Source: Emiliania huxleyi CCMP1516 (Eukaryota). From it: a DNA stretch of 42,084 nucleotides. The stretch's first letter is position 1; every line of letters starts with the position of its first letter. The notes below the pieces were generated by a model that ran no database searches, had not been told where the DNA came from, and saw only the letters and a list, made by a program, of their open reading frames with translations. The stretch is taken from positions 250,426 to 292,509 of the forward strand of contig NW_005201191.1 of the NCBI RefSeq assembly GCF_000372725.1, given 5' to 3'. Position numbers and translations under genes: made by a program. This document shows, piece after piece, positions 4,980-39,983 of this stretch.

Positions 4980-6240
4980 AGACCAAGAGCATGGAGACGA
5001 GGGAAGGCGCGAGGCGCTCCGCCGACAAGCAGCAGAGGCGGCGGCGAAGTAACGACGGCCATGCTAACGACGGGCGGCACGGTGGTAGGGGCGAAGGTAG
5101 GCCCCTCTAGCATATCCGTTTCAACTGCAGCTGCACCGGCACCTGTTGCTGAGGTGTCAGCAGCATCGAACGAGCCGAAGCAAGGCACGCGGGCGACGCA
5201 CTTCGTTCGCTACGAGGAGGTACAATTAGGCAAGGCAGCTGCGCAGGTGATGGTCCTATTCGCAGAGAAAGGAGTCAAGGAAGGCCAAGAAATCACATGG
5301 TCATATGGGGACTCATACAGGAGCAACCGCAAGGCGATGAGATACAAGGCGGATCCGAACGCAATAACACCCCAGCAAGCTCGGACGGCATTTGCGAGAT
5401 ACTGCAAAAAGATAGACGTGACGAAGGAGGAGCTAGCGTGGAACTTTGGATGCATATCGGCAAGCCAAAATAACGAGCCAGAGGCTGCCCTGGTGCGTGA
5501 GCTAATCCTGAGCAACAATAAGCGACTGTATCACGGAGCACAGAGCGCAGGCTGCAGCAGACAGGACGGCGGCGACGGCGGACATGGCAGAGACGAGTGT
5601 GAAACAAAGGGCGGCGGGGATGGAGGGCGGTAGCGACGGGGATGGTGACGGTGACGGTGGCGAGGGAGCGGAGGGGAAGGGGGTCCATTAACACCAGACA
5701 GCGAGAGGGGCAGGGAGGAAAGGAGGAGAGAGGAAGCCAACGGCGATGCCACCAGCAGCAGGGGACACGATGAACAAATAGACAACGACCAAGGCGATGG
5801 CGAGGACGAGGAGTCACGGGACGATGGCAGGCGAGACGAGGAGGACGGAGGCGAGGGAAGAGGCAGCGCCGCAGTCGACGGAGGCGACAACGATGGAGAT
5901 GGAAAGGGAGCGGCGACATGCGCAGAGGATGAGGATATAAACTGGGACGACGCAGCGGAGGGGATAGGCGAGGGAATCGAGGGGCCGGAGGGCTTTCGCG
6001 ACAGCGACGATGACGACGAAGGCAGGGGAGGAGACGGAGGGGCGACACGCAGGAGGAGCGAAATCGCGAACGGCCCGAGCAGAGAGAGCGACGACGGCGG
6101 AGCACGAGGGGGCAACGGAAACGCTACCGATGACGCGAACCGAGGCACGGGCGACGGCGGGGACGGGGACGGGGAGGGCGACAGCGACGTCGAGGTTGAC
6201 GCAACCGTATCGAGAGCGCCACCCAAAAGGAGACGAACCG
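4980..6240 (+). mobile_element. degenerate purine-rich repetitive element with a SET-domain-like fragment and an acidic coding tract
   Basis: 5680-6230 is largely duplicated at 29030-29425. The ORF contains NEP...VMVLFAEKGVKEGQEITWSYGDSY, resembling the SET C-terminal motif. Stops and frameshifts follow downstream. Confidence 0.5.
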
Positions 6241-27990: not shown

Positions 27991-28932
27991 AGGGTGGCGC
28001 ACGTCGTCCTTCCCTCTCCGACAGCCGCGCGGCCCCTCGCCCGCAGGCGTGCCGCTGCCGGACGTGTGCGCAGCACTCGGGGTCGCGTGGCCAGGCGGTG
28101 ATGGCGGTGGCGACGGCGGTGGCGGTGATGGCGGTGGCCGTGGCGACAGCGGTGGCGACGGCGGCGGCGGTGGCGATGGCGGCGGCGGCGGCGGCGGCGG
28201 CAGCGGCGGTGGCGGTGGCGACGGCAGCGGCGATGGCGCGGCGGACTTTATCGGCATCGTCGCCGCGCCGCCGCCGGCCGTCGCCGCGCGACCCGGCGGA
28301 GCTGCCGCCCTCCGCCAACTAGGTGCGTGGGCCTGCCATCTACTTAGGGCCCACCCGTTATTGATTATCAGAGAGAAGAGAGCCGCGAGTGGGTCGGCCA
28401 CGACGCTAATCAATGTTAGCTGAGGTTAGCTAAGTGTCAAATTATTGCTAGGCGAGTGGGTCGGCCTGGTGGCGCTCGACGCCCGAGAGGCTCTCGTGGC
28501 GGCGCCGCACCCGCCGCCAGTAGGTGAGGGCGGCGGAGGGAGGCAGGCACCGCAGACTTGGTGCGCCGCGCACACCTGTGGTGGGGAATAGGCGGGTGTG
28601 GCTTCCTGCACCTCGACGCGCTGCCATTCTGCGGAGGAGGAGGAGGAGGCGACGGCAGCGGCGGCACGCTGCTGGCTCGCTCCTTTGAGGGCCTGCTCGG
28701 CGAGGCTGCAGTGTGGCGGCTGGTGGCGGCGGCGACGGCGGCGATCGAGTCGGGGGAGGTGCCGTGGGCGGTCCTCACCGTGTGGGGCTTCGCCGACGCG
28801 CCCGTCAGCTGGGGCTTGTCGGAGCACGCTTGCGGCTCTGAGAATGACTTCACGTTGCTGCTGCTGCCCGGCTCGCAGCCGCGGGTGATGTACTCCGTCT
28901 CGCGCGATGCTGCCTTCCGGCCGCCGAGCTAA
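27321..28932 (+). CDS. RPP40: RNase P/MRP subunit p40; exons 27321-27728, 27796-27934, 28047-28322, 28452-28523, 28592-28932
   Basis: HFFNHRAELLLP, LLSPDFL..HLRGGSLLALA, LYESLGLAG, LGEWVGLVAL, VPWAVLTVWGFADAPVSWG.EH...ENDFT are characteristic of Rpp40; four introns restore the frame. Confidence 0.85.
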
Positions 28933-29029: not shown

Positions 29030-29760
29030 GGGGTCCATTAACACACCAGATCGACACACGACAGCGAGAGGCACTGCCAGAGGGGCGGGGAGGAAAGGGG
29101 GAGAGAGGAAGCCAACGCGACGTGCGCAGAGGATGAGGATATAAACTGGGACGACGCAGCGGAGGGGATAGGCGAGGGAATCGAGGGGCCGGAGGGCTTT
29201 CGCGACAGCGACGATGACGACGAAGGCAGGGGAGGAGACGGAGGGGCGACACGCAGGAGGAGCGAAATCGCGAACGGCCCGAGCAGAGAGGGCGACGGCG
29301 GGGCACGAGGGGGCAACGGAAACGCTACCAATGACGCGAACCGAGGCACGGGCGACGGCGGGGACGGGGAGGGCGACAGCGACGTCGAGGTTGACGCAAC
29401 GGTATCGAGAGCGCCACCCAAAAGGAGGAGGACAGCCATGGTGCATGGAGGTCACCGAATGGAGGGCGAACGGTACGATACGAAAAGGCAGGGCGAGGCG
29501 GATGGAGAAAGAAGTGCCGAGGAGGCCATGGTGGAGGGGAGGGACGGGAGGACGAAAGAAGGGCGAGGAGGACGAGCGGCCCGCACAGCGGACCGCGACC
29601 AGACAGCGCCTGTTGGCCATTTCGAGACATTCGCAAAGAACGCTAGCTACATGGGAGGGCTTCGTGAAGGATGGATTGAAACACATTCGAACAAAGAAGA
29701 GGCGACGAGAGGAACCGGCAGAGGATGCAGTGACGTGACCCCCCCCCACACACACACACC
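29030..29760 (+). mobile_element. second copy of the acidic-tract element (cf. 5680-6230), extending to a stop and a (CA)n tail
   Basis: near-identical CAEDEDINWDDAAEGIGEGIEGPEGFRDSDDDDEG...VDATVSRAPPKG coding tract; ends at TGA 29738, followed by CCCCCCCACACACACAC. Confidence 0.7.
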
Positions 29761-29845
29761 GCTCACCCACGCGCACGCACTGGGTGGGCCTTGCACTTTG
29801 AATGCCGTGGGGCTCCTGTCGTCAGACGTGGAGACGCGAACTACT

Positions 29846-29927
29846 CGCTTAGGCGGCTCCGGTGGTGTGCCGGTGTGTGTGCCAGTCCGCGCCAGTCCGC
29901 GCCCTTGTCGTGCCAGTGTGCTGTGAG
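29846..29927 (+). mobile_element. 3' UTR remnant of retroelement family A
   Basis: TCGCTTAGGCGGCTCCGGTGGTG...CCCTTGTCGTGCCAGTGTGCTGTGAG matches the reverse complement of ~15487-15569. Confidence 0.75.
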
Positions 29928-29931
29928 GGCG

Positions 29932-33272: not shown

Positions 33273-36200
33273 ATGAGCGACCTCAAGCCGGAGAAGACGA
33301 TCGCCAAGAAGAAGGACAAGAAGGACAAGGCGGAGAAGAAGGCTGCCAAGCTTGCCAAGGCCGCCGCCGCCGCCGCCACAACAGACACCGCCGACAAGGC
33401 GGCGAAAAAGGAGAAGAAGGCGAAGAAGAAGGAGGACAAGGCGGACCGTAAGCGGCCGCGCGATGAGGAGGCGCACGTGCGCCGCTCTCCGCGCCTCGCA
33501 CCCGCGACTACTGCCGCCGCGCCAGCCGTTCCAGAGATGGCTCTCGCAGAGGCGGTGCCGTCCGCCGAGTCGGCAGACGCGTGGCGGGCAAAGCACCTGA
33601 TCGAGTCGTCCGAGGCGCTTCCCGACCCTGTGCGGGCCTTCTCCGACGCCCCCTTCGACACGCGCATCCTGCAGCAGTTCCAGAAGCTCGGGTGGACCGA
33701 GCCGTCGCCTGTCCAGGCGCAGGCCTGGCCGATAGCGATGGGCGGCAGGGACATCATCGCGGTGGCAAAGACGGGGAGCGGCAAGACGCTCGGCTTCCTG
33801 CTGCCCATCTTCCACCGCGTCCGCGACGAGCTCCCGCTCGATGCGATGACCGGCCCGCTCGCGGTCGTCCTCGCGCCGACGCGGGAGCTTGCGGTGCCTG
33901 CCGCCACCGCCACCGCCTCGCGCCTGCCGCCACTGCCACCGCCTCGCGCCTGCCGCTGCTGCCACCGCCTCGCGCCTGCCGCCACTGCTGCCACCGCCTC
34001 GCGCCTGCCGCCGCCACCGCCACCGCCTCGCGCCTGCCGCCACCGCCACCGCCTCGCGCCTGCCGCCGCCGCCGCCGCCTCCCGCCCGCCGCCGCCCGCA
34101 CGCCGCCCGCCCGCCGCCCACCCAGCCGCCCGCCCACCCAGCCGCCCGCCCGCCCACCCAGCCGCCCGCCCGCCCGCCCGCCCGCCCGCCCGCGCGGTGC
34201 CCGAGGCTCGAGGCTGAGGGGCGAGAGGCGTGGCGTACGTCAGGTGCAGATCCACGTCGAGGCGGAGAGGTTCGGCACGCCCGCCGGAGTCAAGGTTGCG
34301 TGCGTGTACGGCGGGACGCCTAAGGGGCCGCAGATCGGTGTGCTCAGCCGCGGCCGGCCGGCGGTCGTCGTCGCGACGCCGGGCCGCATCAACGACATCC
34401 TCGCGCTCGACTCGCCGCCAGTGACCGACCTGAAGGAGCGCGCCTCTCTCTAGAACCCGAGAGAACCCGACAGTACCCGACAGGACCCGAGAGGACCCGA
34501 GAGGACCCGAGAGGACCCGAGAGGACCCGAGAGGACCCGAGAGGACCCGAGAGGACCCGAGAGGACCCGAGAGGACCCGAGAGGACCCGAGAGGACCCGA
34601 CCTGAAGGCGACCGGCCGCCTCTCTTCTAGATGGGAGAGAGGCGCGAGACGCTCGGTGTCGTGCCACGGCTGCGGCACCGACGCGCTGTGCGTGTGTGGG
34701 CGAACGAGGAGAGGGGGAGACGGGCCACTCTGGAGATATGGGGAGATATGGGGAGATATGGAGAGACGGCCCACACACCGGAGCGACACACAGACACACA
34801 CAGCGCCGCTCACCGGCCGAACTGGCCGCGCCTCCACCCCCCGACTCGGCGGGCGGTGAGCGGCGCCCCTCTTCTCTGTTGACGGCGGTGTGGGGCTGAG
34901 CTAGGCGTGCCGCTTTCTCGTGCTCGACGAGGCCGACGAGATGTAGCCGAGATGCAGCCGAGATGCAGCCGAGATGCAGCCGAGATGCAGCCGGGAGACA
35001 GCCGAGATTGGCGAGGCGGCGCCGGAGGCTCGCCGAGGGTCGTCGTGAGTCGTCAGAATGCATTCTCTGCGAGAGTGGACTAGCTAGAGCTCGCACTAGA
35101 GGCCGTCCTCGCATTCGCCTTCCTGGGACCCAGCGCTGGCTTCTGACTGCCCTCGCTGTCTCTCCCTTCTCGACTGTCTGCGCTTGTGCGTCGTGGGTCC
35201 CGGGGGTTGTGTTTTTGGGTGCACTCATAGGCGGGCCGGGACGCTCGACGGGGTCTCCTCGAGTGAACGGAGATGTTAACCTCTCCCTCAATGAGCAGGC
35301 GGACCGGATGCTCGACATGGTCACAGCAGGAGGTGTGAAGAGACGCTGTTCACCGCCGGAGGTGTGAGCAGGCGGACCGGATGCTCGACATGGTCACAGC
35401 AGGAGGTGTGAAGAGACGCTGTTCACCGCCGGAGGTGTGAGCAGGCGGACCGGATGCTCGACGTGTTCACAGCAGGAGGTGTGAAGAGACGCTGTTCACC
35501 GCCGGAGGTGTGAGCAGGCGGACCGGATGCTCGACATGCTCACAGCAGGAGGTGTGAAGAGACGCTGTTCACCGCCGGAGGTGTGAGCAGGCGGACCGGA
35601 TGCTCGACATGGTCACAGCAGGAGGTGTGAAGAGACGCTGTTCACCGCCGGAGGTGTGAGCAGGCGGACCGGATGCTCGACATGCTCACAGCAGGAGGTG
35701 TGAAGAGACGCTGTTCACCGCCGGAGGTGTGAGCAGGCGGACCGGATGCTCGACATGCTCACAGCAGGAGGTGTGAAGAGACGCTGTTCACCGCAGGAGG
35801 TGTGAGCAGGCGGACCGGATGCTCGACATGTTCACAGCAGGAGGTGTGAAGAGACGCTGTTCACCGCCGGAGGTGTGAGCAGGCGGACCGGATGCTCGAC
35901 ATGTTCACAGCAGGAGGTGTGAAGAGACGCTGTTCACCGCCGGAGGTGTGAGCAGGCGGACCGGATGCTCGACATGTTCACAGCAGGAGGTGTGAAGAGA
36001 CGCTGTTCACCGCCGGAGGTGTGAGCAGGCGGACCGGATGCTCGACATGGTCACAGCAGGAGGTGTGAAGAGACGCTGTTCACCGCCGGAGGTGTGAGCA
36101 GGCGGACCGGATGCTCGACATGTTCACAGCAGGAGGTGTGAAGAGACGCTGTTCACCGCCGGAGGTGTGAGCAGGCGGACCGGATGCTCGACATGTTCAC

Positions 36201-39200
36201 AGCAGGAGGTGTGAAGAGACGCTGTTCACCGCCGGAGGTGTGAGCAGGCGGACCGGATGCTCGACATGGTCACAGCAGGAGGTGTGAAGAGACGCTGTTC
36301 ACCGCCGGAGGTGTGAGCAGGCGGACCGGATGCTCGACATGTTCACAGCAGGAGGTGTGAAGAGACGCTGTTCACCGCCGGAGGTGTGAGCAGGCCGACC
36401 GGATGCTCGACATGCTCACAGCAGGAGGTGTGAAGAGACGCTGTTCACCGCCGGAGGTGTGAGCAGGCGGACCGGATGCTCGACATGCTCACAGCAGGAG
36501 GTGTGAAGAGACGCTGTTCACCGCCGGAGGTGTGAGCAGGCGGACCGGATGCTCGACATGCTCACAGCAGGAGGTGTGAAGAGACGCTGTTCACCGCCGG
36601 AGGTGTGAGCAGGCGGACCGGATGCTCGACATGCTCACAGCAGGAGGTGTGAAGAGACGCTGTTCACCGCCGGAGGTGTGAGCAGGCGGACCGGATGCTC
36701 GACATGTTCACAGCAGGAGGTGTGAAGAGACGCTGTTCACAGCCGGAGGTGTGAGCAGGCGGACCGGATGCTCGACATGCTCACAGCAGGAGGTGTGAAG
36801 AGACGCTGTTCACCGCCGGAGGTGTGAGCAGGCGGACCGGATGCTCGACATGCTCACAGCAGGAGGTGTGAAGAGACGCTGTTCACCGCCGGAGGTGTGA
36901 GCAGGCGGACCGGATGCTCGACATGCTCACAGCAGGAGGTGTGAAGAGACGCTGTTCACAGCAGGAGGTGTGAGCAGGCGGACCGGATGCTCGACATGCT
37001 CACAGCAGGAGGTGTGAAGAGACGCTGTTCACCGCCGGAGGTGTGAGCAGGCGGACCGGATGCTCGACATGCTCACAGCAGGAGGTGTGAAGAGACGCTG
37101 TTCACCGCCGGAGGTGTGAGCAGGCGGACCGGATGCTCGACATGCTCACAGCAGGAGGTGTGAAGAGACGCTGTTCACAGCAGGAGGTGTGAGCAGGCGG
37201 ACCGGATGCTCGACATGGTCACAGCAGGAGGTGTGAAGAGACGCTGTTCACCGCCGGAGGTGTGAGCAGGCGGACCGGATGCTCGACATGTTCACAGCAG
37301 GAGGTGTGAAGAGACGCTGTTCACCGCCGGAGGTGTGAGCAGGCGGACCGGATGCTCGACATGTTCACAGCAGGAGGTGTGAAGAGACGCTGTTCACCGC
37401 CGGAGGTGTGAGCAGGCGGACCGGATGCTCGACATGGTCACAGCAGGAGGTGTGAAGAGACGCTGTTCACCGCCGGAGGTGTGAGCAGGCGGACCGGATG
37501 CTCGACATGCTCACAGCAGGAGGTGTGAAGAGACGCTGTTCACCGCCGGAGGTGTGAGCAGGCGGACCGGATGCTCGACATGTTCACAGCAGGAGGTGTG
37601 AAGAGACGCTGTTCACCCCCGGAGTGTGAGCAGGCGGACCGGATGCTCGACATGTTCACAGCAGGAGGTGTGAAGAGACGCTGTTCACCGCCGGAGGTGT
37701 GAGCAGGCGGACCGGATGCTCGACATGCTCACAGCAGGAGGTGTGAAGAGACGCTGTTCACCGCCGGAGGTGTGAGCAGGCGGACCGGATGCTCGACATG
37801 CTCACAGCAGGAGGTGTGAAGAGACGCTGTTCACCGCCGGAGGTGTGAGCAGGCGGACCGGATGCTCGACATGTTCACAGCAGGAGGTGTGAAGAGACGC
37901 TGTTCACCGCCGGAGGTGTGAGCAGGCGGACCGGATGCTCGACATGTTCACAGCAGGAGGTGTGAAGAGACGCTGTTCACCGCCGGAGGTGTGAGCAGGC
38001 GGACCGGATGCTCGACATGTTCACAGCAGGAGGTGTGAAGAGACGCTGTTCACCGCCGGAGGTGTGAGCAGGCGGACCGGATGCTCGACATGTTCACAGC
38101 AGGAGGTGTGAAGAGACGCTGTTCACAGCACGGAGGTGTGAGCAGGCGGACCGGATGCTCGACATGCTCACAGCAGGAGGTGTGAAGAGACGCTGTTCAC
38201 CGCCGGAGGTGTGAGCAGGCGGACCGGATGCTCGACATGTTCACAGCAGGAGGTGTGAAGAGACGCTGTTCACCGCCGGAGGTGTGAGCAGGCGGACCGG
38301 ATGCTCGACATGCTCACAGCAGGAGGTGTGAAGAGACGCTGTTCACCGCCGGAGGTGTGAGCAGGCGGACCGGATGCTCGACATGTTCACAGCAGGAGGT
38401 GTGAAGAGACGCTGTTCACCGCCGGAGGTGTGAGCAGGCGGACCGGATGCTCGACATGTTCACAGCAGGAGGTGTGAAGAGACGCTGTTCACCGCCGGAG
38501 GTGTGAGCAGGCGGACCGGATGCTCGACATGTTCACAGCAGGAGGTGTGAAGAGACGCTGTTCACAGCCGGAGGTGTGAGCAGGCGGACCGGATGCTCGA
38601 CATGCTCACAGCAGGAGGTGTGAAGAGACGCTGTTCACCGCCGGAGGTGTGAGCAGGCGGACCGGATGCTCGACATGTTCACAGCAGGAGGTGTGAAGAG
38701 ACGCTGTTCACCGCCGGAGGTGTGAGCAGGCGGACCGGATGCTCGACATGCTCACAGCAGGAGGTGTGAAGAGACGCTGTTCACCGCCGGAGGTGTGAGC
38801 AGGCGGACCGGATGCTCGACATGGGCTTCCAGCCGCAGATCGACTCGGTCCTCGCCCGCATCCCTCCGGGCAGGCAGAGCCCCTCTCTCCTCGCCCTCGC
38901 ACCACGCGGCCCCTCCCCGCGACCTTCTGCCGAGCCGCCCCCCCTCAGCCCCGCAGGCAGACCCTCCTCTTCACCGCCACGTGGCCAAAGGAGGTGCAGA
39001 GGCTGGCCGCCACCTACCTCCGCCCCGACGCGGCGATGCTCTTCATCGGCGGCGCCGAGCAGAAGCTGGTCGCCAACGCGGCCATCACGCAGACGTTTGA
39101 GCAGACCGACGAGGCAGCCGAGAGACCGCCGAGATGTAGCCGAGATACCGCCGAGACACCGCCGCGACACCGCCGAGATACCGCCGAGATGTGGCCGAGA

Positions 39201-39983
39201 TGCACACAGGCTGGACGAGGCCCGCGCTGCGTCGCGGCCCGCGGCGGCGCAGCACCTCCACGGCACGCCAAGTGCACGTGCATGGTGTACGTGCATGTCC
39301 GCGTCGGCAGGGCGCCACATCCACGTCCACGACGCGCCCGTGACTCGGCCACATCACGCTCCGCGACGCGTGTCGCGCAGGCGTCCAAGCCGGAGCGGCT
39401 GAGGCAGCTCGTCGCGGAGCTGCCGGCGGGCAGCCGCACGATTGTGTTTTGCAACACAAAGATCAAGTGCGAGAGCCTCGCGCGCGAGTTCCGCTCGGCG
39501 GGCACCTGCGCCATCCACGGCGACAAGGACCAGCAGCAGCGCGAGTACGCGCTGCAGCAGTTCACGCGCGGCCGCTGCCCGATGATGTTTGCGACGGACG
39601 TCGCCGCGCGCGGCCTCGACATCAAGGGCGTCACCAACGTGATCAACCTCGACATGCCGCAGGGCGACGACGGCGTCGAGTCGTACGTCCACCGCATCGG
39701 CCGCACGGGCCGCGCGGGCGCGACGGGCAAGTCGCACACGCTGTGGGTGGCGAAGACGGACCGCAAGACCGCGCCGCAGCTCACCCAGCTGCTCGCCGAC
39801 GCGAAGCAGGAGGTGCCCGACTTTTTGGCGGCGGCCGCCGCGTCGGCGGGCAAGGGCAGGGGCAAGGGCAAGGGCGGCAAGGGCGGCCGCAGCTGGGGCG
39901 GCCGGGGCGGCGGCAAGGGGGGCGGTGGCAAGGGCAAGGGGGGCGGCAAGGGCGGCAAGGGCGGCGGGTGGCGCCGGTGGTGA
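33273..39983 (+). CDS. DEAD-box RNA helicase (DDX5/Dbp2-Dbp3-like); exons 33273-33893, 34244-34435, 34905-34931, 38803-38873, 38957-39113, 39381-39983
   Basis: Q motif GWTEPSPVQAQAWP, AKTGSGKT, LAPTRELA|VQI, VYGG, ATPGR, FLVLDE|ADRMLDMGF, R|QTLLFTATWP, IHGDKDQ, ATDVAARGLDIK, YVHRIGRTGRAG; Lys-rich N-terminus and GK/RGG-rich C-terminus. Confidence 0.93.
34451..34600 (+). repeat. 10-bp tandem repeat (GAGGACCCGA) x~15, intronic
   Basis: directly visible; the first copies are degenerate. Confidence 0.95.
35299..38823 (+). repeat. 73-bp minisatellite, 48 units, intronic; contains 49 copies of the splice acceptor plus first 21 nt of exon 4
   Basis: unit GCGGACCGGATGCTCGACATG[G/C/T]TCACAGCAGGAGGTGTGAAGAGACGCTGTTCACCGCCGGAGGTGTGAGCAG; 38803-35299 = 3504 = 48 x 73. 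Confidence 0.97.

Follow-up and report, generated by a model that had tools for sequence, protein, structure and literature searches.

The origin of spliceosomal introns is an old question, and the routes proposed for it are usually argued from few cases. A locus of Emiliania huxleyi CCMP1516 poses it in an extreme form: how did an intron come to end in 48 tandem units that each look like an intron, and how is it removed? The intron is the third of a DEAD-box RNA helicase gene and lies in a stretch of 42,084 nucleotides (nt), contig NW_005201191.1, positions 250,426 to 292,509, which was analysed as a whole (hereafter the window, numbered from its first letter). The reading that we favour, with a probability of roughly 60%, is that each unit joins a 21-nt duplicate of the start of the following exon to a 52-nt piece from a family of intron ends, that this piece was copied in and the unit multiplied, and that the units are predicted to be spliced out piecewise. 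Judged from the sequence, the structure would be an introner-like intron gain with unusually long duplications, followed by tandem amplification, and the array is likely an extreme case of a genome-wide route to new introns. In E. huxleyi there appear to be many young cases whose footprints can still be read in the source intron, the duplication and variants in copy number, and two routes that are usually kept separate, introner-like spread and tandem duplication, would be joined here.

The array occupies positions 35299..38802 of the plus strand and holds 48 units as assembled (46 of 73 nt, one of 72 and one of 74), copy estimates from depth ratios disagreeing between runs; Tandem Repeats Finder (TRF) reports a period of 73, 48.4 copies and 98%. 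Each unit consists of a 21-nt copy of the exon-4 start and a filler, and the units abut without any exon between them. The exon-4 start is preceded by CAG 49 times, the 49th copy, at 38803, being the true exon; all 49 junctions are of the ratchet type AG|G[T/C], and every array junction reads CAG|GC. TRF and the exon-start copies thus bear out the sequence-only reading of this DNA, which had described 48 units of about 73 nt with CAG|GC junctions. Its further claim that non-final acceptors lead to a stop without re-splicing holds for 49 of the 50 acceptors tried (46 reach it after 22 amino acids, the others after 11, 37 and 46), and 38803 alone reads to the protein end. The variation it had placed at the base directly past the exon copy was also recovered, with T in 21, C in 20 and G in 7 of the 48 units. 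This base would mark the boundary between copy and filler, G coming from the exon and T and C matching two end variants seen among units of element E, the dispersed family described below. Along the array the variants show no clustering (21 same-neighbour pairs against a null of 17.5, P 0.18), and G-type units are confined to its first 30 (P 0.03, post hoc). In the last unit, the exon copy (38730..38750, plus strand) gives the GC donor, and an 18-nt tail that repeats the filler start (38785..38802, plus strand) ends in the acceptor. The filler carries an 8-bp terminal stem, its start and tail forming a hairpin (fold of 38748-38802, z -3.38, 0 of 200 shuffles equally stable); taken over all 73 nt, a unit shows no unusual structure (z -0.5 to -0.9), and an Rfam scan of 34900-35520 returned a single match at chance level (E 0.63).

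The host of the array is an intact, expressed E. huxleyi DEAD-box RNA helicase of the DDX5/DBP2-like type. A six-exon model on the plus strand encodes 556 amino acids without an internal stop, with 71% identity to Tisochrysis and 77% to Isochrysis proteins. Exon 1 (33273..33893) and exon 2 (34244..34435), the latter followed by a GA donor that opens intron 2 (34436-34904), carry the Pfam DEAD domain; the 27-nt exon 3 (34905..34931, ACRFLVLDE) is placed by orthologue alignment and by RNA coverage; intron 3 (34932..38802, 3871 nt) splits DE|AD; exon 4 (38803..38873, starting ADRMLDMGFQPQID) and exon 5 (38957..39113) are covered by RNA contigs; and exon 6 (39381..39983) carries Pfam Helicase_C and is 100% identical to the E. 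huxleyi protein P0001. The other introns measure 350, 469, 83 and 267 nt, and all five exon starts read AG|G[CT]. According to the accessible part of PMC4028052, GC accounts for 56-65% and GA for about 4% of E. huxleyi donors, and intron retention is frequent. The junction from exon 3 to 38803 is required by the orthologue alignment. Units of this kind break gene models, P0001 being an example: it lacks exon 3 and with it the DE of the DEAD motif. P0163, the second database model, likewise reads into exon 4 via CEQ, the last nine bases of an array unit. P0172 reads from the protein start across the K|A junction of exon 2 and through DE|ADRMLDMGF, and then becomes a paralogue. Within intron 2, a copy of the last 13 bases of exon 2 followed by GC lies at about 34590-34610, behind a 10-mer array (34455-34600).

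Sequencing runs bear on both the array and its gene. All 19 runs were contig assemblies, and 7 of the 19 were compared with the window (X2-X4, X6-X8, X12 and X14-X16 were left out; none of the query words was present in X17-X19), depths being per-contig or summed values and not copy numbers. In X1 the unit-specific contig has a depth of 1039.7 against 15.4 and 11.4 for the flanks, in X5 the unit-specific bases sum to 1298 against 98-143, and in the marine run X10 to 209.5 against 4-6. More than one sample contains an array, probably not of the same length in each. With multi-copy depth in three DNA runs, an assembly artefact, which the sequence-only reading had named as a refuting outcome, is rejected for the existence of the array, although not for its exact count. 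All three RNA runs (X9, X11 and X13) hold a contig that starts at 38801 with introns 4 and 5 spliced out, and exon 3 is covered in X9 (36.6) and X11 (118) while the preceding intron stretch 34770-34902 is uncovered. The suspicion of a pseudogene thus loses ground to six intact exons and downstream splicing, whereas the spliced joint 34931-38803 was absent from the contigs, none of which spans exon 3 to exon 4. Small differences were also seen: X1 lacks 2 bases at 39370 in intron 5 that X9 has, and X5 and X10 lack 2 bases at 35064, which would be allelic or assembly differences.

The filler has counterparts outside the locus. It is identical at 34/34 positions to the reverse complement of a roughly 40-nt element E (locus L010), followed by the 18-nt tail; in unit 47 this antisense E lies at 38678..38711 (minus strand). 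A purely local duplication, as had been proposed, is not supported because the filler belongs to a dispersed family: only 21 of the 73 nt of a unit are local and 34 match E, so that locality holds for the amplification step and not for the origin of the unit. The mid-unit sequence is very high-copy and is joined head to tail by other spacers in X1 contigs. A 25-nt core of E, with 0 chance matches in 100 shuffles, occurs at 18 metagenome loci, reaches a summed depth of about 22,000 in X1 against 15, and has 0 matches in viral contigs. E carries a branch-point-like motif, ends in AG at 17 of the 18 loci and is followed by GC or GT at all of them. Once L004 (a duplicate of L005) and L009 (a duplicate of L002) are set aside, E is preceded by a copy, 19-38 nt long and starting GC or GT, of the sequence that comes after it at 13 of 16 distinct loci (copy score at least 14), compared with 29 of 887 control AG|G[CT] sites. 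The unit measures 63-74 nt while the exon copies vary between 19 and 38 nt (18 hand-picked units). Sense fillers have ragged 5′ ends and inverted repeats only internally. Antisense fillers are seen twice, in the window array and at L015 (631-702); in both, the end of E, read on the strand of E, still adjoins G[C/T], which hints (n = 2) that this motif primes insertion.

Units of this build behave as introns elsewhere. L015, a phosphoserine aminotransferase gene (serine synthesis), carries three sites: a 72-nt unit with an antisense E-like filler (631-702), a run of three sense units, and a 71-nt unit whose filler is a different one. Without them, its protein is colinear with six homologues, bacterial ones included, is identical across the junctions to P0157 (source: Marine Microbial Eukaryote Transcriptome Sequencing Project, MMETSP) and matches P0158, P0159 and P0161; P0039 reads through one unit at the site where L015 carries three. 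Coding sequence is restored by unit removal in this one gene plus the window's helicase gene, and the intron-like nature first ascribed to the array units gains from their sharing the build of single units that must be removed at L015.

Several observations bear on copying, amplification and gain. The L001 filler holds 17 nt of the downstream exon of L008 and the L002 filler 9 nt of an L015 exon, both absent from the host loci's own exons (4 matches of at least 8 nt in 334 pairs), which suggests copying from one intron to another site. Two to three tandem units occur in L002/L009, L015, L017 and L018, and X1 holds at least seven further head-to-tail E joints among 12 of 33 joint rows, with spacers of 30-39 nt read by eye, units of 63-72 nt and depths of 69-1332. 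Among relatives, the proteins P0170 (on a 15.8-kb contig) and P0169 run unbroken across DE|AD on contigs that look genomic, which suggests that they have no intron there and that the gain may be lineage-specific. Two side observations concern other loci. At L014 (1026-1186), two E units lie 16 nt apart and the copy of one overlaps the other, which could reflect successive insertions in one exon. In the RNA run X11, depth reaches 4091 over a head-to-tail E array (spacer 38 nt), against 102 for the helicase gene, and this array RNA would be retained, stable or circular.

The proposed mechanism has three steps. First, the last 35-53 nt of an intron already present, with branch-point-like motif and acceptor, would be copied before G[C/T] at a staggered break, and filling of the staggered ends would duplicate 19-38 nt of the target. 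The first exon copy would supply the donor and the filler the acceptor, and therefore the protein would be unchanged. In the window the filler would have been inserted antisense, which could work because E is nearly palindromic. Second, the units would be multiplied by slippage or by unequal crossover between exon copies; direct repeats of 21 nt have the length needed for misalignment, which would add whole units in register and make every junction AG|GC by construction. Third, each acceptor is predicted to pair with the nearest donor at intron distance, that is, the start of its own unit, the units leaving singly or in blocks and in any order. A broader version, in which intron 3′ ends are copied to AG|G[C/T] sites with 20-40-nt duplications and no classical transposon, and in which these duplications seed arrays of dozens of adjoining introns across the genome, each spliceable on its own, cleared unit by unit through recursive splicing and perhaps serving as templates for later gains, is at present doubtful.

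The last step has a rival reading. Recursive or ratchet splicing uses AG|GT zero-length exons that are sparse in very long animal introns. The array resembles such sites in that an acceptor is directly followed by a donor; unlike them, its sites lie 73 nt apart and would be a by-product of duplication, and recursive use is only predicted. The CAG|GC junctions are no evidence for recursion, because they follow automatically from the duplication and because most donors in this species are GC. Piecewise removal is mildly favoured, since the nearest donor is the start of each acceptor's own unit and since single units of the same build function. The best-surviving alternative, somewhat less than an even bet, keeps the same origin and lets the 3871-nt intron leave in one step, the 49 upstream acceptors being skipped, the array serving as an inert intronic minisatellite and only the real exon 4 being defined by its downstream donor and enhancers. 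One-step removal keeps some weight because the other AG|GC junctions of the helicase gene, once ligated, are evidently not spliced again, and a block on such re-use may exist. One-step removal also agrees with the contigs of the runs compared, in which no splicing intermediate was seen, and with the X9 depths (62.8 for the spliced contig, 165 for the unit contig and 5.93 for that of intron 5), from which there is no excess of unit RNA if the X9 sample has tens of copies. Missing intermediates mean little, however, because contigs drop rare forms. Against a single step, all units share the 21 exon bases, acceptor and hairpin of the last one, and single units of the same build work as introns at L015. 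Such arrays offer a natural setting in which to see whether ligated AG|GC junctions are used again by a short-intron spliceosome.

Other points also weigh against insertion, amplification and piecewise splicing as we propose them. The joints 34931-35231 and 34931-35299 are not among the three joints listed, all of which lie in satellite, a test that is weak either way with pieces of only 27 and 22 nt. P0172 supports the joint of exon 3 with ADRMLDMGF but is a chimera, since its sequence switches to a paralogue right past that point. The depths give no copy number, and X1 may be the window's own source. No good upstream copy was found at L003, L006 and L007 (3 of 16), the anticorrelation between copy and filler length (rho -0.83) is partly arithmetic, and a single assembly supplies 16 of the 18 loci, whose selection by exact match is biased towards the youngest copies. 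Neither a mobilising enzyme nor an autonomous partner turned up, no search for them having been made. An empty, pre-insertion allele was not seen at any site, which is why insertion is treated as inferred.

E units work like introners, depart from their short fixed duplication and add tandem amplification. A near-identical sequence is found in introns at many unrelated loci (18 loci, profile scan and X1 depth). As in the introners of Symbiodinium, Polarella glacialis (classes 1, 4-6, 8 and 10) and Aureococcus, in the parts of two preprints by Gozashti and colleagues that were accessible (bioRxiv 2020.10.14.339549; bioRxiv 2022.06.06.494994), unrelated introns share sequence, the acceptor lies in the element, the donor comes from the target duplicate, both orientations work and the mRNA is unchanged. 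These likenesses favour E as a conventional non-autonomous transposon, either a miniature inverted-repeat transposable element (MITE) or a short non-long terminal repeat (non-LTR) element, and hence an introner with a long, enzyme-made target-site duplication. Such an origin is nevertheless improbable: duplications are 3-8 nt and fixed in those parts of the preprints, as in MITE-type introners, but 19-38 nt and variable in E units, whose ragged 5′ end can take in exon sequence of another gene, and the same build recurs in many unrelated fillers, some of them AT-rich. E units also amplify into tandem arrays, and the word 'tandem' is absent from the accessible text of both preprints. As for the non-LTR variant, retroposition of that kind leaves a fixed 3′ end, a truncated 5′ end and a duplication of variable length. 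E units show this pattern; against the variant, no poly(A), A-rich or simple-repeat tail was seen in the 18 E loci. A literature search, mostly on titles and the beginnings of abstracts, found no description of the E family in E. huxleyi. Emiliania is not named in the main text of either Gozashti preprint as far as accessible, although their supplementary species tables could list it, and the accessible parts of two newer genome papers (PMC10290126; bioRxiv 2024.05.26.595999) mention introns once each and not E units.

Quite unlikely, too, is an origin without mobile copying, in which short introns share E by gene conversion and an acceptor-spanning tandem duplication is followed by exact loss of the upstream intron. 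Such a local duplication fully accounts for the array itself, fits the lack of an empty allele and has the geometry described for the potato RdRp case (PMC4974935, accessible part). As there and in the AGGT model (PMC3443670, accessible part), the unit comprises an exon start and an intron 3′ end with its donor taken from the former exon. The potato case, by contrast, is a single local event that leaves a real exon between introns, whereas in the array the donor opens with the first base of the copy (a zero-length exon), there are about 48 repeats, and the intron end belongs to a dispersed family. Gene conversion would moreover need two exact events at 13 of 16 loci, and would leave unexplained the antisense fillers of the window and L015 (631-702) and the foreign exon pieces in L001 and L002. 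Staggered-break repair in Daphnia (PMC3443670 and PMC4202315, accessible parts) is closer to our first step, with an insert flanked by gap-filling direct repeats, but the repeats are short and the inserts mostly unique there, while here the repeats are long and the inserts end exactly at an intron AG. In a further alternative, the allele in the assembly splices poorly or is dead, and another allele that carries few units or none supplies the mRNA. This would fit the lack of any single contig connecting exon 3, the array allele and exon 4 and the copy number that seems to differ between runs, but is very unlikely given the six intact exons, the unit contigs in the RNA runs X9 and X11, and the entry of P0163 into exon 4 through CEQ.

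Two layers precede the array in intron 3. Both begin with GC and end in AG, as the sequence-only reading had it; its stack of units of different ages is supported for the second layer and not for the first. Layer 2 (35231..35298, plus strand) is plausibly an older, decayed unit of the same kind: its 68 nt comprise a 19-nt exon-start copy followed by a tail that shows a weak likeness to sense E (a score reached by 109 of 5000 shuffles), with a fold at z +0.7. One contig of X10 (35187-35317) carries it into the first exon copy; X5 has zero depth over 35226-35282, possibly an allele without layer 2, although a hole alone proves nothing. Layer 1 (34932..35230, plus strand) is mostly satellite, with a GC donor, an 11-mer satellite (34937-35008) that is very high-copy in the runs compared, and a TAG end. 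As an exon-copy unit it was rejected as weak, because its 9/12 match to the exon start barely exceeds the 6-8/12 of the other four introns of the gene and runs into that satellite. At about 35074-35225 it also holds another very high-copy dispersed repeat, with a summed depth above 100,000 in X5 and abundant in RNA runs too.

Elsewhere in the window, an older member of the E family lies on the minus strand at 12715..12787, a 73-nt unit with a decayed 22-nt exon copy and an E-like tail (profile E-value 0.0014), in a gene that from its motifs appears SNF2-like. Other fillers, some of them AT-rich, share the copy-plus-filler build among the matches listed. One such 67-nt unit lies at 28385-28451 on the plus strand, and its 15-nt copy matches the sequence that follows perfectly; AT-rich fillers like it occur in L001, L007, L011 and L016 and are possibly a second family. 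By eye, a duplicated block of several hundred bases lies at 15440-16140, with a related piece on the other strand at 29830-29930 (minus), and 5680-6240 resembles 29030-29430.

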